The notes beneath the pieces are model-generated. The model was not told where the DNA came from. It searched no databases and saw nothing but the letters and a program-made list of their open reading frames with translations. Made by a program: the position numbers and the translations under genes. Source: Escherichia coli (GTDB lineage Bacteria; Pseudomonadota; Gammaproteobacteria; Enterobacterales; Enterobacteriaceae). From it: a stretch of DNA of 64,000 bases. The stretch lies in assembly GCF_041248615.1 (NCBI RefSeq), contig NZ_CP158426.1. The stretch is one strand, 5' to 3'. Below are positions 9,937-23,369 of this stretch, piece by piece (the stretch's first letter is position 1; each line of letters opens with the position of its first letter).

Positions 9937-10986
9937 TCAGTCTGTTAGTGTGCGATTATCGATAACAAAACGATATTTCACATCACCACGCAGCATTCGC
10001 TCATAGGCTTCATTAATTTGATCGGCCCGAATCATCTCTATATCAGCCACGATGCCATGTTCGGCGCAAAAATCGAGCATCTCCTGAGTTTCTGGAATGC
10101 CGCCAATCATAGAACCGGCTATCGCACGGCGTTTCATGATCAGGTTGAAAACTTCCGGCGATTTATGCGGTGTCGCAGGCGCACCAACCAGCGTCATGGT
10201 GCCATCACGCTTCAGCAAGGTGGTAAAATCGTCGAGATTATGTGGCGCAGCTACTGTATTCAAAATGAAATCGAAACTCTTGAGATGAGCCGCCATCTCA
10301 TCGGCATTGCGTGAGTTAACAACTTCATCGGCCCCCAGGGCTTTTGCCGCTTCGCGTTTTGACTCAGAAGTGGTAAATGCCACCACATGCGCCCCCATCG
10401 CGTGGGCCAGCTTAATCCCCATATGTCCCAGACCGCCGATGCCGACCACGCCCACTTTTTTACCCGGCCCGGCCTGCCAGTGACGTAGCGGCGAATACGT
10501 GGTGATCCCTGCACACAACAAAGGAGCCACCGCCGCCAGCTGCTCTTGCGGGTGACGAATACGCAGAACATATCGCTCATGAACGACGATCTGTTGTGAG
10601 TAGCCGCCCAGAGTATGGCCCGGTTCGTCCGGCGTCGGCGAGTTATAGGTGCCGGTCATGTGATCACAGTAGTTTTCCAGCCCGTCTTCACACTCTTCGC
10701 AATGTTTACAACTGTCGACAATGCAGCCGACACCGACCAGATCGCCCGGCGCATGTTTTTCTACCTGATCACCAACGGCTACCACACGCCCCACAATTTC
10801 ATGACCCGGCACGCAGGGGTAAACCGTCCCCGCCCACTCGGAACGGACCTGGTGGAGATCGGAATGGCAAACGCCACAGTAAGCGATTTCAATTTTGACA
10901 TCATGCGGTCCCGGTTCACGCCGGGTGATATCCATCGATTCAAGTGGTTGTTTAGCGGAATATGCACCAACAGCTTTGATCTTCAT
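9937..10986 (-). CDS. yahK: Zn-dependent NADPH aldehyde reductase / alcohol dehydrogenase (MDR family)
   Basis: 349-aa ORF; zinc ADH motif GHEIVGRV; Rossmann GVVGIGGLGH. Confidence 0.88.
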   Translation of the reverse strand: MKIKAVGAYSAKQPLESMDITRREPGPHDVKIEIAYCGVCHSDLHQVRSEWAGTVYPCVPGHEIVGRVVAVGDQVEKHAPGDLVGVGCIVDSCKHCEECEDGLENYCDHMTGTYNSPTPDEPGHTLGGYSQQIVVHERYVLRIRHPQEQLAAVAPLLCAGITTYSPLRHWQAGPGKKVGVVGIGGLGHMGIKLAHAMGAHVVAFTTSESKREAAKALGADEVVNSRNADEMAAHLKSFDFILNTVAAPHNLDDFTTLLKRDGTMTLVGAPATPHKSPEVFNLIMKRRAIAGSMIGGIPETQEMLDFCAEHGIVADIEMIRADQINEAYERMLRGDVKYRFVIDNRTLTD

Positions 10987-11072: not shown

Positions 11073-12029
11073 TTAAACCACCCGATCCAGCCCCAACATG
11101 CCGCGAGCCTGAATGAAACAGAGCAGCAACGTTCCCCATAAGGCCATCGTCAGGTAGGGGCTTATACCGAGAATATTGAAGCCGCTTTCAATAATTTGCA
11201 GAAGAAACAGCGCCAGCACCATACCAATTATCCGCCCGCTGCCGCCGTCCGGATTAACCCCGCCGAGTACTGCCGCGAGGATTGACACCAGCAAGTACGA
11301 TTCGCCATAAGAGGCCTTAGCCGAGTTGAGTTTCGACATCATCAAAAATGCCGCTACCGCACAAAGCAAGGCGGAAATGACATACACCCAAATCAGCACC
11401 CGACGAGTGTTAATGCCGGAGTAAAGTGTTGCTCGTTCGTTAGAACCAATCAGATAAATGGATTTACCGAGCGGCGTTTTCTCCAGCAATATCCACAGCC
11501 CTAGCGACACTGCGGTAAACAACCACATCGGTAGCGGAATACCGAACCACTGTGCATGATTCAACCACAGCACCCATGAGGGATAATTGGCAATGGCGCT
11601 ACCGCCTGTCACCAGAATATTTACCCCTTTGAGCAACGTCATCATCCCAAGCGTTGCAAGAATTGGCGACACTCGAATACCAGCAATCAATACGCCGTTA
11701 CATAAACCGATTATCACCGCCGCGCCAGCGCCCGCCAGCAGCGTAGCGACAACCGTAGCAATACCCGGTGGATACTGAGTCGCCACCCACGCCATCACCA
11801 GTGAACAGGCGTTAGCAGTGGCTATAATTGACAAGTTAATGCCACCGCAAAGCATGGTCACCGCCATAGCCAACGCCAGAATGCCCAGCACGGGCATTTG
11901 CGAAGCGACGGACTGGAAATTACTTATCGACCAGAAAATCTCCGGCATAGTAATGCTGAAGGCTGCAACAGTTAGCACCAGCAGGCCGATCAAGTAAAAC
12001 TCAACGTTGTTACGCCACGATTTTTTCAT
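11073..12029 (-). CDS. ABC transporter permease (CUT2 sugar-type)
   Basis: ORF 11073-12059; internal start MKKSWRNN at 12029 forms ATGA overlap with stop of upstream permease; polytopic membrane protein. Confidence 0.8.
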   Translation of the reverse strand: MKKSWRNNVEFYLIGLLVLTVAAFSITMPEIFWSISNFQSVASQMPVLGILALAMAVTMLCGGINLSIIATANACSLVMAWVATQYPPGIATVVATLLAGAGAAVIIGLCNGVLIAGIRVSPILATLGMMTLLKGVNILVTGGSAIANYPSWVLWLNHAQWFGIPLPMWLFTAVSLGLWILLEKTPLGKSIYLIGSNERATLYSGINTRRVLIWVYVISALLCAVAAFLMMSKLNSAKASYGESYLLVSILAAVLGGVNPDGGSGRIIGMVLALFLLQIIESGFNILGISPYLTMALWGTLLLCFIQARGMLGLDRVV

Positions 12030-12997
12030 AGCAGACTCCGGTTCTGATGCTGACTCCACGCCGTGGCACTAATGCTGGCAACGATGATGATGCCGGTGAT
12101 CAATGTTTGCCAGTAAGACGAGACTCCCAATAAATTTAGCCCGTTTTGCATCACTGCCAACAACACCACGCCGAGCAAAGTACCGGTTAACGTGCCGCGC
12201 CCGCCGAGCAAACTAGTGCCGCCAAGCACCACCGCAGCCAGTACTGTCAGCTCATAACCCAGAAGAGAATCGGGGGCGACAGTCATCACCGTCCACGACT
12301 GCACTACACCCGCAGCACCAGACATCAATCCCATATAGCCGTAGACGAAAAGTTGCAGTTTCAGCACGCTAAAGCCGATGCGACTGGCTGATTCGCGGTT
12401 CCCGCCAAGGGCATAAATTTTGCGCCCTACACTGGTGAAATTCATGATAAACGCTGTTAGCAGCACCACCGTAATCATGGCGATCAGCGGCAGACCAAGG
12501 CCATAGTCATAGCCATCAGCATCGGTGTACTTGAACAACATAACCCCCTGCTCAAACCACGGCGGAAAGTCGTACAGCCACACACCTTTACTCAACCATA
12601 ACAGCAGGCCATAGAAAATATTCAGCGTCGAGATAGTGATGATGATAGACGGCACCCGTAGGCGATTAACCAGTAAGGCGTTTATTAAGCCAAGTAAAAT
12701 GCCGATGCCGCCCGCCAGGGCAAACGCGACAGCAAAGTTGCCACCAATTTTTTGCAGCAACAGCACCATGCCGTATTGCGCAATGATGGTCATTGCCGGA
12801 AACGAAATATCAATCCCACCGGAAATTAACACCACAAACAAACCACAGGCGAGAATAGTCAACATGGCATAGTTATTGGCGAGATCGTACAAATTACCGA
12901 ATGTCAGAAACTCGTCGCTGCGCCAGGCAAGGCCAACAAACAGCACCACAATCAGTAATGCCAGCCAGAATTCATGGCGTTTTTTCAGTTCAGCCAT
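12026..12997 (-). CDS. ABC transporter permease (CUT2 sugar-type)
   Basis: 323-aa membrane ORF; start overlaps ATPase stop by 8 nt. Confidence 0.8.
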   Translation of the reverse strand: MAELKKRHEFWLALLIVVLFVGLAWRSDEFLTFGNLYDLANNYAMLTILACGLFVVLISGGIDISFPAMTIIAQYGMVLLLQKIGGNFAVAFALAGGIGILLGLINALLVNRLRVPSIIITISTLNIFYGLLLWLSKGVWLYDFPPWFEQGVMLFKYTDADGYDYGLGLPLIAMITVVLLTAFIMNFTSVGRKIYALGGNRESASRIGFSVLKLQLFVYGYMGLMSGAAGVVQSWTVMTVAPDSLLGYELTVLAAVVLGGTSLLGGRGTLTGTLLGVVLLAVMQNGLNLLGVSSYWQTLITGIIIVASISATAWSQHQNRSLL

Positions 12998-14489
12998 TTA
13001 CCACCTCCGCAATCCTGGCCTGAGAACTGCTGTCAGGCAGGAAGCTATGGGTGATCTGACCTTTTTGCATTACCAAAATCCGGTGGCTTTGATACCACGC
13101 TTCTTCAATTTCATCGCAGATCATCAATACCGCAATGCCATGAGCCGCCAGATCGCTGATAATGCCGTATATTCCTGCTTTGTTGGCGATATCAACACCG
13201 ACAGTCGGGCTATCGAGAATCAACAGTCGTGGCCCAATCGCCAGCCATTTGGCGATCGATACTCGCTGCGCGTTACCCCCGGAAAGCGTATTCACCGGGA
13301 GATGTGGGTCAGAGACTTTGATGGTCAATGCCTTGATTAGCCTGTCCACCAGGTCACGCACTTTAGCTTCACTCAGAAAGCCGAAGCGATCTTTTACCTT
13401 GTGAAAAACAGTGCTAATGATGTTGTCTTCAATAGATTGCGCCATCACCAAACCGCGCGACATGCGATCTTCCGAAACATAACCAATACCGTGGCGGATG
13501 GCGTCCTGGTTACTATGCAGTGTAACCGGCTGACCGTTGATGAGGATCTCACCAGCATCCGGTCGGGTCATACCAAACAGACTCAGACATAATTCCGTGC
13601 GCCCCGCACCAAGCAGGCCAACAATCGACACCACTTCGCCCGCTTCCACCCGCAAGTTAATATTTTGATATTCCCCATGACGACTTAAATTACGCACCTC
13701 CAGCACCGGGGGGCTGGATTTTCCCTGCCACAACTCTCGTACCTGATATTCGAACTCCTGGCCGGTCATCAGAAAACTGAGTTGTTTTGTGGTCATCTCT
13801 GCGGCCGGAAAGGTCCCGACCAGCTCACCATCTTTCAGCACTGAAATACGGTCGGAAACTTCCATCACTTCTTCCAGACGATGACTGACGAAGACCACGC
13901 AGATCCCGCGTTCCCGCAATTGATGCACCACCTGTAATAACCCTTGCACTTCCTGATGGGTCAGCGAAGCGGTTGGTTCATCCATCACGATCAACCGTGC
14001 GTCCTGCGCCAGTGCACGGCAAATTGCCACCAGCTGACAGCGGGCAATTGAAAGCTCAGAAACGAGCGTATCCAGTGGCAATGTGACGTTAATACTGGTC
14101 ATTGCCGCCTGCGCCACCTCACGCAGACGACGGCGGTTAACAAACAGACCGTGGTGATAGTGGTTCACGGCGATATTCTCCCAGACACTCAGGTTAGGAA
14201 ATAAAGAGAGGTCCTGATAAATCACCTGAATCCCCTGCGCCACCGAAGCGGCGGGTGTCAGCTTTGACCAGTTTTTCCCACCAAGCGTAATTTCCGCCCC
14301 CTCATCCGGGCGATAAACACCGGACATAATTTTAATCAACGTCGATTTACCACAGCCGTTTTGCCCGGCAAGGCAGTGCACCTCACCCGACATAAAGTCG
14401 AGAGAAACATCGCGCAGCGCTCGCGTGGCATGAAACGTTTTGTTGATATGACGAAGGGAAAGGAAGGTTTCCATAGCATCCCCTGGCAA
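12990..14489 (-). CDS. ABC transporter ATP-binding protein with two fused ABC domains
   Basis: 499 aa; Walker A GQNGCGKST and second P-loop GLLGAGRTE; signature LSGGNAQRV; alternative start METFLSL at 14474. Confidence 0.85.
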   Translation of the reverse strand: MPGDAMETFLSLRHINKTFHATRALRDVSLDFMSGEVHCLAGQNGCGKSTLIKIMSGVYRPDEGAEITLGGKNWSKLTPAASVAQGIQVIYQDLSLFPNLSVWENIAVNHYHHGLFVNRRRLREVAQAAMTSINVTLPLDTLVSELSIARCQLVAICRALAQDARLIVMDEPTASLTHQEVQGLLQVVHQLRERGICVVFVSHRLEEVMEVSDRISVLKDGELVGTFPAAEMTTKQLSFLMTGQEFEYQVRELWQGKSSPPVLEVRNLSRHGEYQNINLRVEAGEVVSIVGLLGAGRTELCLSLFGMTRPDAGEILINGQPVTLHSNQDAIRHGIGYVSEDRMSRGLVMAQSIEDNIISTVFHKVKDRFGFLSEAKVRDLVDRLIKALTIKVSDPHLPVNTLSGGNAQRVSIAKWLAIGPRLLILDSPTVGVDIANKAGIYGIISDLAAHGIAVLMICDEIEEAWYQSHRILVMQKGQITHSFLPDSSSQARIAEVVNG

Positions 14490-14522
14490 TAAGAATCGGG
14501 GCTTTCGCCCCGAAGAAATGGA

Positions 14523-15509
14523 TTAATAAAGTGAGTCGATATTGTCTTTGTTGACCAGTAATACCTTATGGAAACGGATAATTCGCTTATCCATATCTAC
14601 GTCGGCCTTACCGAGATTCTCCATTTCTAATCCAGGTTTGATCTCTTCACCCTTCAGCAACGTGCTGGCGACGGCCGCGAGTGCGTAACCTGCAGAGGCC
14701 GGATCGTAAGTAATCCCTTCGGTGATATCACCACTTTTAATCAGTGATGCCGCCTGTGAAGGGATCATCATGCCATAGACTGCGACTTTATTTTTCGCCC
14801 GTTTCTCTTTCACTGCACGTCCCGCGCCAATCGGACCGTTTGAACCAAAGGAGACAACCGCTTTCAAGTCAGGATAGGTTTTCATGAGGTCCAGTGTGGT
14901 ACGACGTGAGTCATCCACACTCTCGGCAACCGGCATGCGGCGGGTAACTTCATGCATATCCGGGTAATGCTCTTTCTGGTATTTCACCAGCAAGTCAGCC
15001 CATAAGTTATGCTGCGGCACGGTCAAACTACCCACGTAAATCACATAGCCGCCCTTGCCACCCATGCGTTTCGCCATATGCTCAACATATTCAGCGGCAA
15101 ATTTTTCGTTATCAATGATTTCGATATCCCAGTTAGCACTTGGCTGACCGGGGGATTCGTTGGTCAGAACCACAATTCCGGCATCTCGCGCTTTTTTGAA
15201 TACCGGTTCCAGCACGTTGGCATCGTTTGGCACAATTGTAATTGCATTAACCTTACGGGCGATTAAATCCTCAATAATTTTAACCTGTTGCGGAGCATCA
15301 GTACTTGAAGGCCCCACCTGTGACGCATTAACACCAAAGGCTTTACCCGCCTCAACCACACCTTCGCCCATGCGATTAAACCACGGCATACCATCGACTT
15401 TAGAGATATTCACCACGACTTTTTCCGCTGCCTGGAGCGGCGCAGAAATTAGCGCAGCGCCTAATAACAGCGAAGACACCATATTGATAACAAAACGTTT
15501 ATTCATCAT
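14523..15509 (-). CDS. periplasmic solute-binding protein, LsrB-like
   Basis: 328 aa with signal peptide (ending LQA-AEK); resembles recalled LsrB along its length including C-terminal KDNID motif. Confidence 0.75.
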   Translation of the reverse strand: MMNKRFVINMVSSLLLGAALISAPLQAAEKVVVNISKVDGMPWFNRMGEGVVEAGKAFGVNASQVGPSSTDAPQQVKIIEDLIARKVNAITIVPNDANVLEPVFKKARDAGIVVLTNESPGQPSANWDIEIIDNEKFAAEYVEHMAKRMGGKGGYVIYVGSLTVPQHNLWADLLVKYQKEHYPDMHEVTRRMPVAESVDDSRRTTLDLMKTYPDLKAVVSFGSNGPIGAGRAVKEKRAKNKVAVYGMMIPSQAASLIKSGDITEGITYDPASAGYALAAVASTLLKGEEIKPGLEMENLGKADVDMDKRIIRFHKVLLVNKDNIDSLY

Positions 15510-15759
15510 TTCAGCCTCATTGCAGGGTAGTCAGGAAGTGTTCGCCCAAATTAGCGCGCTGGAGAGAATAAGAATTTTCGAATATTTTTATGCAGAATAA
15601 ACAGCCCTATTTCAGGCAGCTATTAAAAATTTGGTTATAAATATGGACAAAACGGGCAGTAACAATAAGTGTGACAATCATCACGTAAAAAATAGCAAAA
15701 TAAACAAAATTAGCGATACTTTATGTTTGTGAGCTTATTTCGCGTAGAAAAATAGTTAT

Positions 15760-16170
15760 CTACACAACGTCAATAAGGGCATATTCTTCAAAGATAACGT
15801 CCATTTCGGGTGAATAGCATCCTTCTGCCTGGAAAAAACGACGGTGTTCATTACGCCAATATTCAAGACTGAGGTCACCTTCACCTTCCTTACGGGCAAG
15901 CTCCGCGGTGACATCAGAAAAGCGCAGTAAATGCAGGCCAATCACTCTGATAACACAGACAGGCTCACCACGGCTATTTTCTACAATCTTATACTCACCA
16001 ATCAGCGGAAATGCGTTGTCTTCAATACATCCCGCCAGCGAACCACAGGAAGCTGTTTTAACACCAGTCGCAATCAACGTTGCGAGGTGATCGGCCAACG
16101 CTGCTGAATCGCCAAAAGTACAAAAGGAAGCATGGGGATATTTTTGTGAGATTTTTTCTTTTATGGTCAT
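15760..16170 (-). CDS. ASCH-domain (PUA-like) protein
   Basis: ORF 15760-16200; likely start MTIKEK at 16170; GxKT motif (ATGVKTAS) typical of ASCH domains. Confidence 0.55.
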   Translation of the reverse strand: MTIKEKISQKYPHASFCTFGDSAALADHLATLIATGVKTASCGSLAGCIEDNAFPLIGEYKIVENSRGEPVCVIRVIGLHLLRFSDVTAELARKEGEGDLSLEYWRNEHRRFFQAEGCYSPEMDVIFEEYALIDVV

Positions 16171-16468: not shown

Positions 16469-17851
16469 TCAACCTGCCACACTCCCCCACACCAGTTGCC
16501 CTTTATGGAACGTCGCCGTTCTCGGCGAGATACGCGCCACCGCCTCGGCGGAACAGGAGGCGTCCACCAGCACAAAGCTGGCGTCATCCTGCGCTTTGGG
16601 CCAGACGCGCTCGCCTTTTTCGTTGAGCGGCAATACATCGCCAGTGGCTAAAAACAGCGAACGGGACAAATTCTGTTCGTTAGGACGAATATAGAGCTGC
16701 GCGTAGAGATTGGCTTTTTCCAGCATGTCGCCCAGGCCGTAAGGCGACCAGTGGTCGATAACGCTGTCGGTGCCGGTCATCACTTTTACGCCTTTGTCGT
16801 GCAGTTGTTTAAGCGGCATATGTAGCGTGCCAATCGGCACCGTCGAGGCGATAGAAATTTGCTGCGCCGCCATCCGGTGCGCCAGTTCATCTACCTGTTG
16901 CTCATTGAGCGTTGCCAGCGCAAAGGCGTGGCTGATGGTCAGCTTGCCCTTCAGTTGCGGCGTTTTCTCCACCGTTTCAACCATATAATTGATGGCTGCC
17001 ACGCCTGCCGGAGTGGTTTCGTGCAGGTGAATATCAACGCCTTTGTCGTAGTCCAGCGCAATCTGGAACATGGTGTCGAGGGATTTTTCCATCGCGCCAT
17101 CAACACTGGTCGGGTCCAGCCCGCCGACGTAATGCGCCCCCGCCTGCATCGCTTCGCGCATTAAGGGTTCTGATTTCGACAGCAGCAAACCGTGCTGCGG
17201 GAAGGCGACAATTTCACACTCGAAGCCCGCCTGACGTCGCGCCAGAACCGCCTGCAAATTTTGCAGATTTTTCAGGCCGGAAACCGGTTCGATATTGCAG
17301 TGGCTGCGGGCAATGGTGGTGCCTTTCGATTGCAATAAATCGATCAGTTTTTCCGCCCGCTCCTGAGTATACGGTTGCAGTTCCGGCAGCATTTTCTGCT
17401 CAAGCTTAATCATGTCCTGGATGGTGGTGCCTGCCGGACGATTGAGCGAGCGCCACGGCCCGCCGTAAAAGGTTTTGTCGAGATGAATATGCATGTCGCG
17501 GGTAGTGGGCAGCATCAGCTTACCGCCAGCGTCATAGTGCGGCAGCGTGGCGTCCGGATGCTGCTTGTTCTCGCGCAGGGCAACAATTTTGCCGTTCTGA
17601 ATCTCTACGGTCTGGTGCGCCGTGCGGGTCTGTACTGCCACACCGTTTTCGTAGTCAAAACCGGTTTCCAGCAGCACGTTGTCGAGATAGTAGTGCGGGT
17701 CAGTGATTTTCATGGTGTTATTCGCGTCGCAATGGATTGTGCCAGAGACTGCCGCATGGGCGAGCGGCACAGAGGTACCAAACAGCGCGGCGGCGGTGAC
17801 CATCTTACCGCTCTGGCTCAGAAACTCACGGCGGCTATTGTTTTCTTTCAT
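16469..17851 (-). CDS. yahJ: metal-dependent amidohydrolase/deaminase with twin-arginine signal peptide
   Basis: 460 aa; N-terminus MKENNSRREFLSQSG...AHA (Tat motif SRREFL); amidohydrolase-superfamily HxH-type sequence. Confidence 0.85.
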   Translation of the reverse strand: MKENNSRREFLSQSGKMVTAAALFGTSVPLAHAAVSGTIHCDANNTMKITDPHYYLDNVLLETGFDYENGVAVQTRTAHQTVEIQNGKIVALRENKQHPDATLPHYDAGGKLMLPTTRDMHIHLDKTFYGGPWRSLNRPAGTTIQDMIKLEQKMLPELQPYTQERAEKLIDLLQSKGTTIARSHCNIEPVSGLKNLQNLQAVLARRQAGFECEIVAFPQHGLLLSKSEPLMREAMQAGAHYVGGLDPTSVDGAMEKSLDTMFQIALDYDKGVDIHLHETTPAGVAAINYMVETVEKTPQLKGKLTISHAFALATLNEQQVDELAHRMAAQQISIASTVPIGTLHMPLKQLHDKGVKVMTGTDSVIDHWSPYGLGDMLEKANLYAQLYIRPNEQNLSRSLFLATGDVLPLNEKGERVWPKAQDDASFVLVDASCSAEAVARISPRTATFHKGQLVWGSVAG

Positions 17852-17860
17852 CTTACGTCC

Positions 17861-18811
17861 TTACGTTTTAATAATATGGGTGCCCGTTTCACCACGCAGC
17901 GCCGCAGGCAGGCATTCCGGCGTGGTGATAATCACTTCTTTACCGCCCTGCTCCAGGAACGTCAGGCTGGCGATGATTTTTGGCAACATGCTGCCGGGTG
18001 GGAAATGCCCTTCCTGCATATAGCGGGTCATGGTGGCAATATCCACCCGATCCAGCGCCTGCTGCTGCGGCTTGCCAAAGTGAATACACACTTTTTCCAC
18101 GCCCGTGGTGATCACCAGAATGTCGGCGTGAATTTCGCGAGCCAGTAGCGCGGTAGAGAGATCTTTGTCGATAACCGCGTCCACGCTTTGGTAATCCCCC
18201 GCTTCAGTACGCACTACCGGAATTCCACCGCCGCCCGCGCCAATCACCACAAAGCCTTGCTGGATCAGCGCCTTAATGGCAGGTGCTTCGACAATACGTT
18301 TCGGTTCCGGCGAGGCGACCACGCGGCGATAGCCCCGTCCGGCATCTTCAACAAAACGCCAGTCAGGATTTGCCTTTTGTAATTCGTCACGCTGGCTGTC
18401 ACTAAAGAATGCGCCGATGGGCTTGGTGGGATGAGCAAATCCCGGATCGTTTTTATCCACTTCCACCTGAGTCACCACGGTGACGGCTTTTTTCTCGCCG
18501 TGACGCGCCAGCCGGTTGTTCAGCGCCTGCTGGATCAGATAGCCAATGCCGCCTTGCGTATCCGCCACACAGTTCGCCAGCGGCGTTAAGGGCAGCCCTT
18601 CGCGCTCGTGGGCAATCTCCGCGCGGCGTAAATCCAGCCCGACCTGCGGCCCGTTGCCGTGGGTCAGCACAATGTCGTAATCGGAAGCCAGCATTTCCAG
18701 CACCGTATCGGCGACGGCCTTCACCGCCTCCGCCTGATGCTCAATCGACTGGCTGGCGTTATCTTTGATAATGCTGTTGCCACCAATGGCAACGACCACA
18801 AGCTCTTTCAT
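17861..18811 (-). CDS. yahI: carbamate kinase-like protein
   Basis: ORF 17861-18985; conserved start MKELVVVAIGGNS at 18811 gives 316 aa; amino-acid kinase fold motifs. Confidence 0.85.
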   Translation of the reverse strand: MKELVVVAIGGNSIIKDNASQSIEHQAEAVKAVADTVLEMLASDYDIVLTHGNGPQVGLDLRRAEIAHEREGLPLTPLANCVADTQGGIGYLIQQALNNRLARHGEKKAVTVVTQVEVDKNDPGFAHPTKPIGAFFSDSQRDELQKANPDWRFVEDAGRGYRRVVASPEPKRIVEAPAIKALIQQGFVVIGAGGGGIPVVRTEAGDYQSVDAVIDKDLSTALLAREIHADILVITTGVEKVCIHFGKPQQQALDRVDIATMTRYMQEGHFPPGSMLPKIIASLTFLEQGGKEVIITTPECLPAALRGETGTHIIKT

Positions 18812-18905
18812 GTTGTTATGTCCGCTACAGAGGGTGATGGGGTTATGAGAGTGAGGTTGCCCCTCTCCCCAGAAGGGAGAAGGGATCGTAAGGTGCGTTT
18901 GCAGG

Positions 18906-20324
18906 TCAGACGCCGTAACGTTCGCACCAGCCGAGAATGGCTTTCTCGAAGCAGGCGAATGGTGGATGCACAATGCCCGCACCAATCATGCCGACGCCCG
19001 CATCTTTATGGGCGATGGCGGTGTTGATCACCGGCAGAATGCCGCTGCTGCCCACGCGGGTGATGTCGATTGCCGACGGCACGCCCATAAAACCGAGCAG
19101 CGGAATGGTGACGTTGGGGTTTTCACCGAGAGTGATTTCACGCATCTGGCGGGAGAAATCGATAGCCTCTTCCACCGTACCGCCCACCAGCGCGACGATC
19201 GCGGGCGCGGTCGCCATGGCAAATCCGCCAATGCCGTAGGTTTCAGTGATGGCGCTGTCGCCGATATCCAGCCCCGAATCTTCCGGCTTATAACCGGCAA
19301 ACATCGGCCCGATCACCTGCTGCGCCGGACCGGTAAACCATTGCCCCGGTAATCCGCTGACCCGCAGGCCGAACTCGACGCCGTTACGCGCCATGGTGGT
19401 GACCACGGTGCTGTATTCGATGCCGTGCGCCGCATCCATCGCCGCTTTACACATCGCCATCCACGTCGGGCCGGAGAAGTAGTCGCTGCTGGCGACAAAC
19501 TCAAACACTTCGCGCTGTTGCTCGACGGAATAACCCGCCTGAATAATCCCCTGCGTCAGCGCCTGAATCAGCAACGTCGTCCCGGCGTTATTGCGGTTAT
19601 GGCATTCATCGCCCATATGCAGCGCCTGCGCCAGCATTAAGCGCAGATCGATTTCGCCGATAATTTTCATCGCGTCGCGCAGCATTGGCCCCTGCACATC
19701 GCGCATCCAGTTGAGGCGGTCAATCACGCTCTGGTCGTTAGCGCCCATACGCAAAATCTTCGCCATCTGCTCGCTCATATTGGTGTAAGCGATGTTGCCG
19801 TAGGTTTTGTTTTTTACGATGTGCATAAACATCGAGGCCGAGGTAACACCCGCCATCGAACCCACGCAGTCGTGCTCGTGGCACGGCGAGAAGGTGATCT
19901 CCCCGGAGGCCGCCAGTTCAGCCGCCTCATCGAGATCTTTCGCCAGCCCTTCGAACACCAGCGCTCCGGTGACCGCGCCTTTCATCGCGCCACACATTTT
20001 TTCCCAGGTGATCGGCGGTCCGGCGTGAAGAATGGTTTTCGGCGTCATACCCGGCACCACGTTAATCGCCTGATCAAAACCAATCAGCACCGGATGCGAC
20101 TGGATAATGCGCTCCAAAGCCTGCTGGTTAGCGGCGGCGATTTTGTCTGCCAGCGGCGAATCGGCAATGTTATCCAGCGCCTGCACCACCTGCATATTGC
20201 CCTGCCCCGGCGGCGTCCAGTCGAGTTGAGTCACTTCTACATGCTGCTTTTTCAGGTCATCGCTAAACATGGCGATGCCGACGTTAATAACGTTCAATGG
20301 TTGGCTAAACAGTGACTGGCTCAT
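18906..20324 (-). CDS. yahG: DUF1116 protein (YlbE paralog)
   Basis: 472-aa ORF; start shares one nt with yahF stop. Confidence 0.8.
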   Translation of the reverse strand: MSQSLFSQPLNVINVGIAMFSDDLKKQHVEVTQLDWTPPGQGNMQVVQALDNIADSPLADKIAAANQQALERIIQSHPVLIGFDQAINVVPGMTPKTILHAGPPITWEKMCGAMKGAVTGALVFEGLAKDLDEAAELAASGEITFSPCHEHDCVGSMAGVTSASMFMHIVKNKTYGNIAYTNMSEQMAKILRMGANDQSVIDRLNWMRDVQGPMLRDAMKIIGEIDLRLMLAQALHMGDECHNRNNAGTTLLIQALTQGIIQAGYSVEQQREVFEFVASSDYFSGPTWMAMCKAAMDAAHGIEYSTVVTTMARNGVEFGLRVSGLPGQWFTGPAQQVIGPMFAGYKPEDSGLDIGDSAITETYGIGGFAMATAPAIVALVGGTVEEAIDFSRQMREITLGENPNVTIPLLGFMGVPSAIDITRVGSSGILPVINTAIAHKDAGVGMIGAGIVHPPFACFEKAILGWCERYGV

Positions 20325-21871
20325 CAGGCTTCCTCCCCTTTGCAGATAAATTCACGCGCCAGCAATCCGGTATTGGTGCTGCTGCTGGCCAGAATCACTC
20401 CGGCATCAAGCAACATCTGGCTTTGTTGTTCTAACGATGGCGTATCAAGATCGGTACCCAGCACATAGGCGAGAATGATCAACTCACGTCCTTCGGCAGC
20501 GGCGATCGCTTTCGCCTCTTTGATCGCCTCGATGGTGGAACCGACCGGATCTTCATGCGATCCAAACCCGAGCACAAAATCCATCACGATCACCGCCACT
20601 TCTGGATCGCGCGCCTCTTCGATCAAGCGGCTGATACGGTTGGTGGGGTCAATCATTGGATGCGGCTTGCCGTTGGTGAAGTCGTCATCGCCAAAGTCGA
20701 GGAAGGTGTGTTTGATGCTGCGGTTGATATCTTGCAGGCGGAATTCAGGATCGGGCTGAATGTTGCTGTAGACATCGCCATGTTTTTCCATCACCGCGAA
20801 CATGGTTTCGTCACACAGCGTGCCGCCGCAGAACAGGCCACGAATGTATTTCTGCTGCGGTTGCAGACGCGCACGCACATCCGCAATCAACGGCTGGTTC
20901 AGGGTATGCAAGTCGAGATGTTCTTGTTTCACACCGGAGAGCATCACCGCTTTTAGTGCCGCCTCTTTGGTGCCGCGAGCAAACTGTAGCCCCTGCTCAT
21001 CCACTGGCGTTTCGCCACGACCGAGGAAGCAGACCACCACTGGCTTACGGCAGGCGCGTGCGCGTTCCAGCACTTTGCGGGCCACCGCAGGCGCTGGCGG
21101 TTTGGAGATAAGCACAATGATTTCAGTTTGCGGATCGTTTTCCAGCATCCCGATAGCGTCGAGCATCATCAGGCCGCCGATTTTCTCGCTCAGGTCGCGC
21201 CCGCCGGTGCCAATCAGTTGCGAAACGCCGCCGCCAAATTCATGAATGCGGACGCTCAGTTCCTGGCTACCGGTGCCGGATGCGCCAACAATACCGATGT
21301 TGCCACGACGCACGGCGTTACCAAAGCAGAGCGCCGCGCCGTTGATAATCGCCGTACCGCAGTCTGGCCCCATCATCAGCAGCCCTTTTTCGTGGGCCAA
21401 CTGTTTGAGCGCCAGTTCATCTTCAACTGAGACGTTATCGGAAAACAGCATCACGTTAAGATCGTTTTGCAGCGCCTGACGCGCTTCGCGAGCGGCAAAC
21501 AGACCGTTGACCGAAATCACCGCCAGGTTACTTTCCGGGATATGCTTTTTGGCGCTGGCAATAGTGGCATAGCGTGCTTCATGTGAACCAGTTTGAGCTT
21601 TGGTGTTGAACAGTTCTTCAATCTCCACCAGCAACTGCTCGTTGTCTGCGCCCGCTTTGCCGTTGATGACAATCATCAGGTCGCCGTTTTTCGCCTGCTC
21701 CAGTTCCGGCGTCAGCAGCCCTAAATTCTTCAGCACGCCTTTGTTCATTTCGGTCGCCATCGCCACAAATGCCTGCTCGACGCCGTCGAGTTTATTTGCA
21801 CGCGTGGAGATAGACATCAGCGAGACAGAATCAAAATAGGTATTCGGTTTAATGACTATTTTAACTGACAT
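20324..21871 (-). CDS. yahF: FdrA-like protein (succinyl-CoA synthetase alpha / CoA-binding fold)
   Basis: 515-aa ORF; glycine-rich CoA-binding-like segments; overlaps yahE by 11 nt. Confidence 0.8.
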   Translation of the reverse strand: MSVKIVIKPNTYFDSVSLMSISTRANKLDGVEQAFVAMATEMNKGVLKNLGLLTPELEQAKNGDLMIVINGKAGADNEQLLVEIEELFNTKAQTGSHEARYATIASAKKHIPESNLAVISVNGLFAAREARQALQNDLNVMLFSDNVSVEDELALKQLAHEKGLLMMGPDCGTAIINGAALCFGNAVRRGNIGIVGASGTGSQELSVRIHEFGGGVSQLIGTGGRDLSEKIGGLMMLDAIGMLENDPQTEIIVLISKPPAPAVARKVLERARACRKPVVVCFLGRGETPVDEQGLQFARGTKEAALKAVMLSGVKQEHLDLHTLNQPLIADVRARLQPQQKYIRGLFCGGTLCDETMFAVMEKHGDVYSNIQPDPEFRLQDINRSIKHTFLDFGDDDFTNGKPHPMIDPTNRISRLIEEARDPEVAVIVMDFVLGFGSHEDPVGSTIEAIKEAKAIAAAEGRELIILAYVLGTDLDTPSLEQQSQMLLDAGVILASSSTNTGLLAREFICKGEEA

Positions 21872-22724
21872 AATTCCCTCCGTAGGTTTGGCTCAGCGCA
21901 CAACCATCGGCCATGCCATACAGCATGTCGCAGCCGGAACTGGAGCCAATATGTTTAATTTTTTCTATTGCCTGAGTTGCGTTCCCAGGGACACCATAAA
22001 TAATGTTATGAATAAAACGATGAATATTTTCCCGGCAGCGTTGTTGTAATGCGGCTTCCAGCGTTATGGCACTTAATAACGTGGTATTATTTCTGCCGCG
22101 TTGCAGACCGAGATAAAATTCCTCTTTGTATTTTTCCGCCGGATGTCCGGAAATAAATAAAATAAGCGCCAGACCTGTTAAATAATCGTCGGCTGATGGC
22201 GTAAGGCCAATCCCTAAGCCCATCATACTGGCGACTGCTGAGGCGATATTTTGTTTATCGTTTACGGCCTGAATAACTGCCCGTCGTTTAATATGTAATT
22301 CTTTATTTAACGCCTGATAAAACGGATTATCGCCGCAATAATTAAACAGGGTTTCATTTTCCCCCAGGTGCTGATGAATAATGTCATGCCACTGTTGCCA
22401 GGCGATAAGGTGAAAATTCACAGCGGTCATTTGCAAGGTTGGGGACAGCCAACGCCGACAACGACTCATCTCTATATGAAGATGTTGACCAACCGTAATG
22501 CCTTGATCGTCAAACTGAACCTTATCACCATGCCGGAACAGACCATCAAAGTGAGTGAGTGCCAACCGACAACTGTTTGGCGCATTGTCGTACTCTTCAC
22601 AAAGCAGCGTCAGCAACTGCTGGCGGGCCGGAAGTGCGATATTTACCGCTCTGGCAAAGACCTGTTCAACCTGTCCTTGCCCCCGCTGCGCCAGAAAATC
22701 AGCATCCGCAGTTAGCGCCCACAC
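21861..22724 (-). CDS. yahE: DUF2877 protein (YlbF paralog)
   Basis: 287-aa ORF upstream of and overlapping yahF. Confidence 0.75.
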   Translation of the reverse strand: MWALTADADFLAQRGQGQVEQVFARAVNIALPARQQLLTLLCEEYDNAPNSCRLALTHFDGLFRHGDKVQFDDQGITVGQHLHIEMSRCRRWLSPTLQMTAVNFHLIAWQQWHDIIHQHLGENETLFNYCGDNPFYQALNKELHIKRRAVIQAVNDKQNIASAVASMMGLGIGLTPSADDYLTGLALILFISGHPAEKYKEEFYLGLQRGRNNTTLLSAITLEAALQQRCRENIHRFIHNIIYGVPGNATQAIEKIKHIGSSSGCDMLYGMADGCALSQTYGGNYVS

Positions 22725-22763
22725 ACACCGTCTTTCTGGTGTGTTGATAGCAAGCCTCCCGGT

Positions 22764-23369
22764 TTATGCACCTGCGGCAATCAGTAACTGTGCAATCTCT
22801 TCAAAGCCTCGTTCCCGCGCCAGTTCCAGCGGCGTTTTGCCATATTTATCCGTCATGTGCGGGCTGGCACCGTGTTCCAGCAATAACTGGACAATCGCCT
22901 GCTGTTTAATCCCGCCATCATTAAGCACAATTGCTTCCAGTAGCGGCGTCCAGCCAACATGGTTGGTCTGGTTAACGTTAATCTCCGTATGCGCCAAAAG
23001 CTCTTTTACAATACTTAAATGGCCTTTTTCACAGGCAGGCGTCAGGCCGACACCGCCAAAACGGGTGACGCAATTAAGATCGGGTTTAGCCGGTAAAATA
23101 ATCCGTAACAGGGTTAAATCGCCGGTCAGGCAGCTAATTAAAAAAGGATTTGAACATATTTGATCTTGCTTATTAATATCTGCTCCGGCATCAATTAATG
23201 CCTGAACGCAAGCATATTGCTGATATAAACTTGCCAGCGTAATTGCCGTTTTCCCCTGACGATCGCAGGTATTAATATCGACACCCAGCGCAAGGCATGT
23301 TTTTACTTTATCGATATCACCCTGTTGCGCAGCCAATAAATAGTCGGCAGGTAGATTTTTTATAGTCAT
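22764..23369 (-). CDS. yahD: ankyrin-repeat protein
   Basis: 201 aa; repeated motifs of the type GKTAITLASLYQQYACVQALIDAGADIN. Confidence 0.8.
   Translation of the reverse strand: MTIKNLPADYLLAAQQGDIDKVKTCLALGVDINTCDRQGKTAITLASLYQQYACVQALIDAGADINKQDQICSNPFLISCLTGDLTLLRIILPAKPDLNCVTRFGGVGLTPACEKGHLSIVKELLAHTEINVNQTNHVGWTPLLEAIVLNDGGIKQQAIVQLLLEHGASPHMTDKYGKTPLELARERGFEEIAQLLIAAGA

Follow-up and report, generated by a model that had tools for sequence, protein, structure and literature searches.

AtzC (N-isopropylammelide isopropylaminohydrolase) and cytosine deaminase (CodA) are mononuclear-metal enzymes that act in the cytoplasm. They have the fold and the HxH, H, H and D motifs in common with YahJ of Escherichia coli, at an identity of only 21–29%, and YahJ differs from both in having a signal peptide as an N-terminal addition. 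The products of the genes beside yahJ also have described relatives: YahEFG and YahI are paralogues of the AllFGH oxamate carbamoyltransferase and of the carbamate kinase of the allantoin pathway, respectively. To our knowledge, the all cluster contains neither an exported amidohydrolase nor an ankyrin partner. In the phoD-tatAd-tatCd cluster of Bacillus subtilis, the gene of a Tat substrate is followed by the genes of a dedicated translocase. The gene of the YahJ homologue in Priestia and the tatA and tatC genes behind it are arranged alike, which is a feature of Priestia and not of E. coli.

With respect to export, YahJ compares best with the cleavable Tat substrates of E. coli (SufI, CueO, AmiA/AmiC and EfeB/YcdB), with which it has in common an S/T-R-R-x-F-L motif, a moderate h-region and an A-x-A site. 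It differs from consensus Tat substrates in that Ser rather than Lys follows F-L and that the c-region is without a basic residue. It also differs from the other E. coli Tat substrates in that its signal is reported to be promiscuous: according to PMC6788121 (citing Tullman-Ercek 2007 and Fisher 2008), the isolated YahJ signal (ssYahJ) exports reporter proteins to the periplasm, and both Tat and Sec recognise it.

That YahJ has a Tat signal is already published, and the finding itself is not new. The gene (b0324) appears in a TATFIND-based table (PMC3027627), YahJ with an identical 33-residue signal is listed for an ExPEC strain among 25 Tat substrates predicted by TatP (PMC7549933, Table 2), and ssYahJ has been employed to tag proteins for secretion in E. 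coli and Vibrio natriegens (PMC6788121). The siting of YahJ in the periplasm is the published reading (PMC7549933; PMC3027627; PMC6788121). Deletion of yahJ caused a mild competitive defect (CI 0.70, p 0.02) (PMC7549933), and in a survey from 2024 yahJ and its operon neighbours are still listed as uncharacterised (PMC11551758). Our search of the literature yielded no report on the localisation or the export route of native YahJ.

The signal peptide of YahJ and the start of its gene

The yahJ coding sequence (460 codons plus stop) occupies positions 16469..17851 on the minus strand of the window, by which we mean the whole 64-kb stretch of DNA that was analysed, and predicts the precursor of a metal-dependent amidohydrolase of the AtzC/CodA type. 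The first-pass annotation had the coordinates right and left the strand unstated: translated on the plus strand, 16469–17851 contains many stops, whereas the minus strand holds an open reading frame of 460 amino acids. The product begins MKENNSRREFLSQSGKMVTAAALFGTSVPLAHA/AVSGTIHCDANNTMKITDPHYYLDNV (signal/mature part), which agrees exactly with the N-terminus quoted in that annotation (MKENNSRREFLSQSGKMVTAAALFGTSVPLAHA, then AVSGTIHC...). A 1.9-kb stretch with yahJ is 100% identical in three complete E. coli genomes, where the gene is annotated as yahJ, and yahJ was found in 5,033 of 5,426 complete E. coli genomes (93%; at least 80% coverage).

The predicted signal peptide is encoded by codons 1–33 (MKENNSRREFLSQSGKMVTAAALFGTSVPLAHA; 17753..17851, minus strand), as delimited from the translation and from an alignment of the model TIGR01409 to residues 6–33. 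Its twin-arginine motif, read from the translation, is S6-R7-R8-E9-F10-L11 (codons 6–11; 17819..17836, minus strand), the final K of the consensus being replaced by S12. After the motif come 25 uncharged residues and then A31-H32-A33, read from the sequence as the predicted signal peptidase I site (codons 31–33; 17753..17761, minus strand) with cleavage before A34; the 33-residue YahJ signal of PMC7549933, Table 2, is identical. The h-region, M17–L30, is short (about 14 residues) and contains Gly, Thr and Ser. A lipoprotein, for which Cys41 was considered, was rejected: there is no lipobox, and the A-x-A site precedes A34.

The motif is more than a chance occurrence. When the first ~35 residues of all 1,538 candidate N-termini in the window (every in-frame start of open reading frames of at least 60 amino acids, in six frames) were searched for [ST]RRxF[LIV], the only hit was YahJ; the expectation by chance, calculated from amino-acid composition, is about 1e-4 per protein. 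The Tat-type signal claimed in the first-pass annotation, with S-R-R-x-F-L, an h-region and AxA, is real, since it is present as described and conserved in orthologues. The TAT_signal_seq HMM of NCBIfam (TIGR01409) aligned end to end, residues 6–33 of YahJ matching positions 2–29 of the 29 in the profile, but the score of 14.9 bits is 1.8 bits under the cut-off of 16.7. The Sec signal of AauA, used as a control, gave no match to TIGR01409, and a Pfam scan of the first 45 residues of YahJ gave no match.

How the signal is distributed was seen in a homologue search of 1.84 billion representative proteins. Full-length forms with at least ~47% identity have 448–470 amino acids and align from about residue 5 of the query; most other family members have 395–415 amino acids, are leaderless and start at the equivalent of YahJ residue ~50–55. 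Because the NCBIfam family model PRK06846 starts only at YahJ residue 49, and the NCBIfam models of the family as a whole at residues 49–77, the signal can be regarded as an N-terminal addition to the catalytic domain. No full-length homologue with 47% identity or more is without it, several that are more distant, down to about 36%, have it as well, and all the long homologues have the complete signal architecture. RRxF[LI] is found in homologues from Serratia, Raoultella, Aeromonas, Pragia, Shewanella, Priestia, Caulobacter and metagenomes; the long forms with it include those from a soil metagenome (62% identity), Priestia (51%; SRRRFI) and Caulobacter (51%) and two further metagenomic ones (48% and 36%). 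In Serratia and Raoultella S-R-R-E-F-L is unchanged despite synonymous codon differences. The Bacteroidota homologues have S/T-R-K-x-F-I/L, with R-K for R-R in 80 of 80 loci of a genome-wide scan whose matches were confined to Bacteroidota, that is, to relatives of the sequence placed first in the query.

These data bear on whether native YahJ might instead cross the membrane unfolded via SecYEG and be loaded with metal on the periplasmic side, the twin arginines being tolerated rather than required. We consider this quite unlikely. The R-K of the Bacteroidota homologues would be compatible with it, as the second Arg could be dispensable, and so would a c-region without a basic 'Sec-avoidance' residue. 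But S-R-R-x-F-L is strictly conserved in Enterobacterales, Aeromonas, Shewanella, Priestia and others, the h-region of YahJ is less hydrophobic than that of the AauA Sec signal (mean Kyte-Doolittle value 1.56 versus 1.93), and the gene of the Priestia homologue appears to share an operon with tatA and tatC. Export via Tat thus remains the preferred reading of the signal.

A start codon 3′ of the RR motif, which the first-pass annotation had itself named as one of two observations that would refute its proposal, would make YahJ a cytoplasmic enzyme translated from M17 or M47 and the motif part of an untranslated leader. M47 lies just before the conserved YYLDNV start, and a late start would also agree with the leaderless majority of the family and with the beginning of the NCBIfam model at residue 49. 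The annotated ATG (17851–17849) is, however, located 9 nt past the stop codon of yahI and is preceded at a distance of 6 nt by the Shine-Dalgarno sequence AAGGA (17858..17862, minus strand), which overlaps that stop codon (17861–17863), and in each of the four genera examined the orthologue has its own Shine-Dalgarno sequence before the equivalent ATG. Upstream of M17, in codons 1–16, there are six synonymous and three non-synonymous changes relative to Serratia and the same numbers relative to Raoultella; judged by these substitutions, codons 1–16 are under purifying selection, and residues 1–33 as a whole are conserved as amino acids. The Aeromonas orthologue has no Met where M17 aligns, and every long homologue possesses the complete signal. 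A downstream start is very unlikely because codons 1–16 are conserved, because the Shine-Dalgarno sequence stands before the first ATG in four genera and because Aeromonas lacks the Met of M17.

Some Tat substrates are membrane-anchored. That the YahJ signal stays uncleaved and tethers a periplasmic enzyme to the inner membrane is nevertheless the least probable of the readings considered, since the search for cleavage data on native YahJ, which yielded none, is outweighed by the canonical A-x-A at −3/−1, by an h-region of only ~14 residues with Gly, Thr and Ser and by the smaller periplasmic product of ssYahJ fusions, which is consistent with cleavage (PMC6788121).

The mature enzyme and its proposed route

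The predicted mature YahJ consists of residues 34–460 (16469..17752, minus strand, stop included), beginning with a linker of 14 residues (AVSGTIHCDANNTM), after which comes the catalytic domain. The metal-binding and catalytic motifs start at residues 121 (HIHLDK), 217 (FPQHG), 273 (DIHLHE), 306 (ISHAF) and 360 (GTDS), and the His and Asp residues of the motif HxH...H...H...D are invariant in an alignment of 15 homologous sequences. YahJ scores 716 bits against the NCBIfam model PRK06846 (NF005312; cut-off 447) and 68.9 bits against Pfam Amidohydro_3 (cut-off 29.7); Pfam Amidohydro_1 was also matched. The closest solved structures by sequence are those of AtzC (6nbo; E 3.8e-44) and, at about 1e-16, of cytosine deaminases (CodA). 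An AF2 model of YahJ with pLDDT >90 gave TM values of 0.85–0.89 to AtzC (0.89 for 6nbo) and of 0.75 to CodA. Judged from sequence, mature YahJ belongs with the metal-dependent amidohydrolases of the AtzC/cytosine-deaminase type.

As a cytosine deaminase proper YahJ was tried and rejected: against the three NCBIfam cytosine deaminase models it obtained 103, 83 and 70 bits, where the cut-offs are 438, 483 and 403. Because it is so far under the cut-offs of these models, the name cytosine deaminase should not be given to YahJ.

Given a genuine and conserved Tat-type signal, partners without signals and a mature part that is a metal-dependent amidohydrolase, a periplasmic YahJ is the best reading, and the enzyme very probably works in the periplasm. 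Residues 1–33 being a twin-arginine-type signal, native YahJ being exported via Tat and acting in the periplasm together make up a proposal that, taken as a whole, we regard as highly probable. Export of a folded, metal-loaded YahJ is a reasonable inference. The amidohydrolase would fold in the cytoplasm with a single metal ion bound; TatBC would recognise S-R-R-E-F-L, and TatA-dependent translocation would follow; signal peptidase I would cut after A31-H32-A33; and the enzyme of 427 residues would then act in the periplasm on a small N-heterocycle, whose amino or amide substituent it would hydrolyse. The product may be imported and fed to the cytoplasmic YahEFG, an AllFGH-like carbamoyltransferase, and to the carbamate kinase YahI; this link between periplasmic YahJ and cytoplasmic YahEFGI, for which operon structure is the basis, may exist.

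A periplasmic site would place limits on what YahJ can do: its substrate must reach the periplasm, and neither ATP nor cytoplasmic cofactors would be at its disposal.

The yahDEFGIJ operon and the adjacent Aau importer

Upstream of yahJ and, like it, on the minus strand are found, in this order, yahD for an ankyrin protein (22764–23369), yahE (AllH-like; 21861–22724), yahF (fdrA; AllF/FdrA-like; 20324–21871), yahG (AllG-like; 18906–20324) and yahI (carbamate kinase-like; 17861–18811). The gaps or overlaps between the genes from 17861..23369 and yahJ are at most 95 nt, so that yahD-yahE-yahF-yahG-yahI-yahJ appear to form one operon; in the direction of transcription it is followed by an ASCH-domain gene, an ABC transporter and yahK. 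Pfam assigns YahE to AllH, YahF to the CoA-ligase/AllF type and YahG to AllG, and YahI is a carbamate kinase with the amino-acid-kinase fold. YahB, also adjacent, is a LysR regulator. The first-pass annotation had stated that YahI and YahEFG lack signal peptides, and this was borne out: the N-termini of YahD, YahE, YahF, YahG and YahI are not signal-like. If YahJ is periplasmic, the yahDEFGIJ operon spans two compartments.

The cluster yahD-(E)-F-G-I-J is conserved in Serratia, Raoultella and Aeromonas. In Serratia and Aeromonas a gene for a membrane protein of 516 amino acids with at least 10 hydrophobic segments lies between yahG and yahI. Searches of Pfam, NCBIfam and the PDB with this protein gave no match, it bears no similarity to the xanthine/uracil permease of Priestia, and no trace of it was detected in E. 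coli.

Behind yahJ follows an accessory island (11073..16170, minus strand; annotation, Pfam) that is not part of the YahJ system. It comprises the ASCH-domain gene (15760–16170) and aauABCD, namely aauA for the binding protein (14523–15509), the gene of the ATPase (12990–14393) and those of the two permeases (12026–12997 and 11073–12029), all on the minus strand. The binding protein, which here has a classical Sec signal, is identical in 326 of 328 residues to AauA of PDB 9I1M; the importer adjoining yahJ is the Aau system known from EHEC (AauABCD) and is unrelated to YahJ. When the gap between yahJ and the ASCH-domain gene was scanned for promoters and terminators, one promoter-like site was found (16398 to 16369, minus strand; 10 of 12 matches), which is no better than what shuffled sequence gives, and no terminator.

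The Aau transporter of EHEC, an accessory system of the ABC type encoded on a genomic island, takes up D-ribulose and L-arabinose (PMC12307932). AauA binds D-ribulose with a Kd of ~2 µM and L-arabinose ~300-fold more weakly, aau is induced only via AraC plus L-arabinose, and the sugar, once imported, is channelled through AraB into the pentose phosphate pathway (PMC12307932). The segment with the ASCH-domain gene and aauABCD is present in 2,213 of 5,426 E. coli genomes (41%; at least 80% coverage) compared with 5,033 for yahJ, and the yah clusters of Serratia, Raoultella and Aeromonas do not contain the island. The proposal in the first-pass annotation that YahJ performs its hydrolysis before transport by the adjacent importer therefore finds no support: Aau is an AraC-controlled pentose importer on an accessory island, rarer than yahJ and with poor co-occurrence. 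This is a point of correction, and Aau should not be used to infer the pathway of YahJ.

Possible ankyrin partners and neighbourhoods of distant homologues

Genes for YahD-like ankyrin proteins adjoin those of exported YahJ homologues in distant phyla, where yahEFGI genes are lacking. Over their full length, the YahD-like proteins beside YahJ homologues are 33–41% identical to YahD. For example, in the proteobacterial soil metagenome locus with the 62%-identity homologue (L002) the YahD-like gene follows that of the YahJ homologue; its product shares 40% identity with YahD and, when read from an upstream ATG, has MRGSLASLVVALVMTVHPTMS. The YahD-like protein encoded next to the metagenomic homologue P0124 has MKTLLLLSLMGLFPSC. 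In 34 of the 80 Bacteroidota genomes the YahD-like gene comes 100–150 nt after that of the YahJ homologue, on the same strand, and its product nearly always has a hydrophobic stretch that ends in Cys. The YahD-like ankyrin protein thus has a Sec or lipoprotein signal of its own at soil locus L002, at the 34 Bacteroidota loci and at locus L010. YahD from E. coli and its enterobacterial relatives have 201 amino acids and no signal peptide, and the 120 matches listed in the search with YahD were all leaderless enterobacterial forms of 201 amino acids.

YahJ could work in the periplasm together with YahD if YahD, itself leaderless, associates with folded YahJ before export and leaves the cytoplasm in its company, as a Tat 'hitch-hiker'. 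We give this a small but appreciable probability; if YahD does hitch-hike, this would account for the retention of the Tat over the Sec route. Another option is that YahD acts on pre-YahJ in the cytoplasm, as a chaperone or as an inhibitor. An AF2 prediction for mature YahJ fused to YahD through a Gly/Ser linker of 30 residues (shallow pairing with 19 paired and 30 unpaired rows; no PAE) had a mean pLDDT of 92.6 and a pTM of 0.66. Since this pTM is about that expected for the larger domain alone (415/646 = 0.64), the prediction gives no confident YahJ-YahD complex. The pairing of amidohydrolase and ankyrin protein and the tatA-tatC context in Priestia are small new leads on the function of YahJ and YahD.

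In Priestia flexa/aryabhattai the gene of the YahJ homologue is followed after 29 nt by tatA and then by tatC, all on one strand. Upstream, in divergent orientation, is a gene for a xanthine/uracil permease, and the N-terminus of the Priestia homologue is weakly like that of PhoD. In Caulobacter sp. RHG1 the homologue is encoded 29 nt after the gene of a TonB-dependent outer-membrane receptor. The tatA-tatC context in Priestia and the TonB-receptor context in Caulobacter provide independent support for the export of YahJ.

The C-terminus of the homologue from Caulobacter sp. RHG1 looks frameshifted. In the Bacteroidota the exported YahJ homologue belongs to a module with an AraC-type regulator (73 of 80 loci), and in 25 of the 80 loci a leaderless paralogue, ~60% identical, is found within 3 kb.

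Twin-arginine-type signals of YahJ homologues in other bacteria

The exported YahJ homologues of Bacteroidota carry the motif S/T-R-K-x-F-[IL]-[KR], which was found by regular expression in 74 of the 80 genomes (loci L013-L092, about positions 10001-10100 in each) and which, judged from sequence, is a conserved twin-arginine variant with Arg-Lys in place of Arg-Arg. The remaining Bacteroidota homologues, which fall outside the expression, are variants or come from truncated or extended ORF calls. In 25 of the 80 loci a leaderless paralogue of 405-427 amino acids and 55-67% identity is encoded within 3 kb of the exported homologue (e.g., L019 12475-13713; L017 11339-12583; L014 8548-9777, minus strand). 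Such a pair may therefore encode the same chemistry for both sides of the membrane. A gene for an AraC-type regulator adjoins in 73 of the 80 loci.

In Caulobacter sp. RHG1 (L009 4672-9458) the gene for a TonB-dependent receptor is followed, after 29 nt, by that for a YahJ homologue with the signal LSRRALL, an arrangement that fits a periplasmic enzyme. In its C-terminal third this homologue loses register with the rest of the family, and the gene is therefore probably frameshifted or a pseudogene.

The homologue from Priestia flexa/aryabhattai is 51% identical to YahJ and carries the signal SRRRFI (L004 10001-12438; also L005 and L006); the divergent gene upstream encodes a permease of the xanthine/uracil family. 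On the same strand, tatA begins 29 nt after the homologue and is followed by tatC. This order recalls phoD-tatAd-tatCd of B. subtilis, by analogy with which the Priestia homologue would be a substrate encoded together with its own translocase.

YahD-like ankyrin proteins as neighbours

In genomes that are unrelated to one another, a gene for a YahD-like ankyrin protein recurrently adjoins the gene of an exported YahJ homologue: in the soil metagenome locus L002 (2938-3611), in locus L010 (7135-7803, minus strand) and in 34 of the Bacteroidota loci L013-L092 (at about 11.4-12.0 kb). Over their full length these proteins are 33-41% identical to YahD from E. coli (window 22764-23369, minus strand), and they carry a Sec or lipoprotein signal, whereas the E. 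coli ankyrin protein has none. When the pair was modelled with AF2 as a fusion of YahJ and YahD, no complex was predicted with confidence (pTM 0.66).

Variation within the yah cluster

Only 9 nt, in frame, separate the yahI stop codon from the yahJ ATG (window 17849-17863, minus strand). In a few assemblies the two are fused to a protein of 779-780 amino acids (P0001-P0003, P0008), which would place the signal peptide in the protein interior. Several E. coli assemblies have in-frame internal yahJ deletions, with products of 400-434 amino acids (P0009, P0011, P0014, P0016, P0034, P0041).

Between yahG and yahI, Serratia oryzae (L011 6942-8492) and Aeromonas cavernicola (L003 7300-8847) have a gene for a membrane protein of 516 amino acids and 10 or more hydrophobic segments, which is 88% identical between the two species and matches nothing in Pfam, NCBIfam or PDB. 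The E. coli window contains no remnant of this gene, its yahG-yahI gap being about 95 nt. The protein is a candidate for a yah-pathway transporter that was lost in E. coli.

Between yahJ and yahK lies an accessory island composed of an ASCH-domain gene and aauABCD, the genes of the Aau ABC pentose importer (window 11073-16170, minus strand). Its binding protein AauA differs from PDB 9I1M in two residues (D201V and E297Q). Of the complete E. coli genomes, 41% have the island; in the rest, no more than about 3% of its sequence is left, at its ends.
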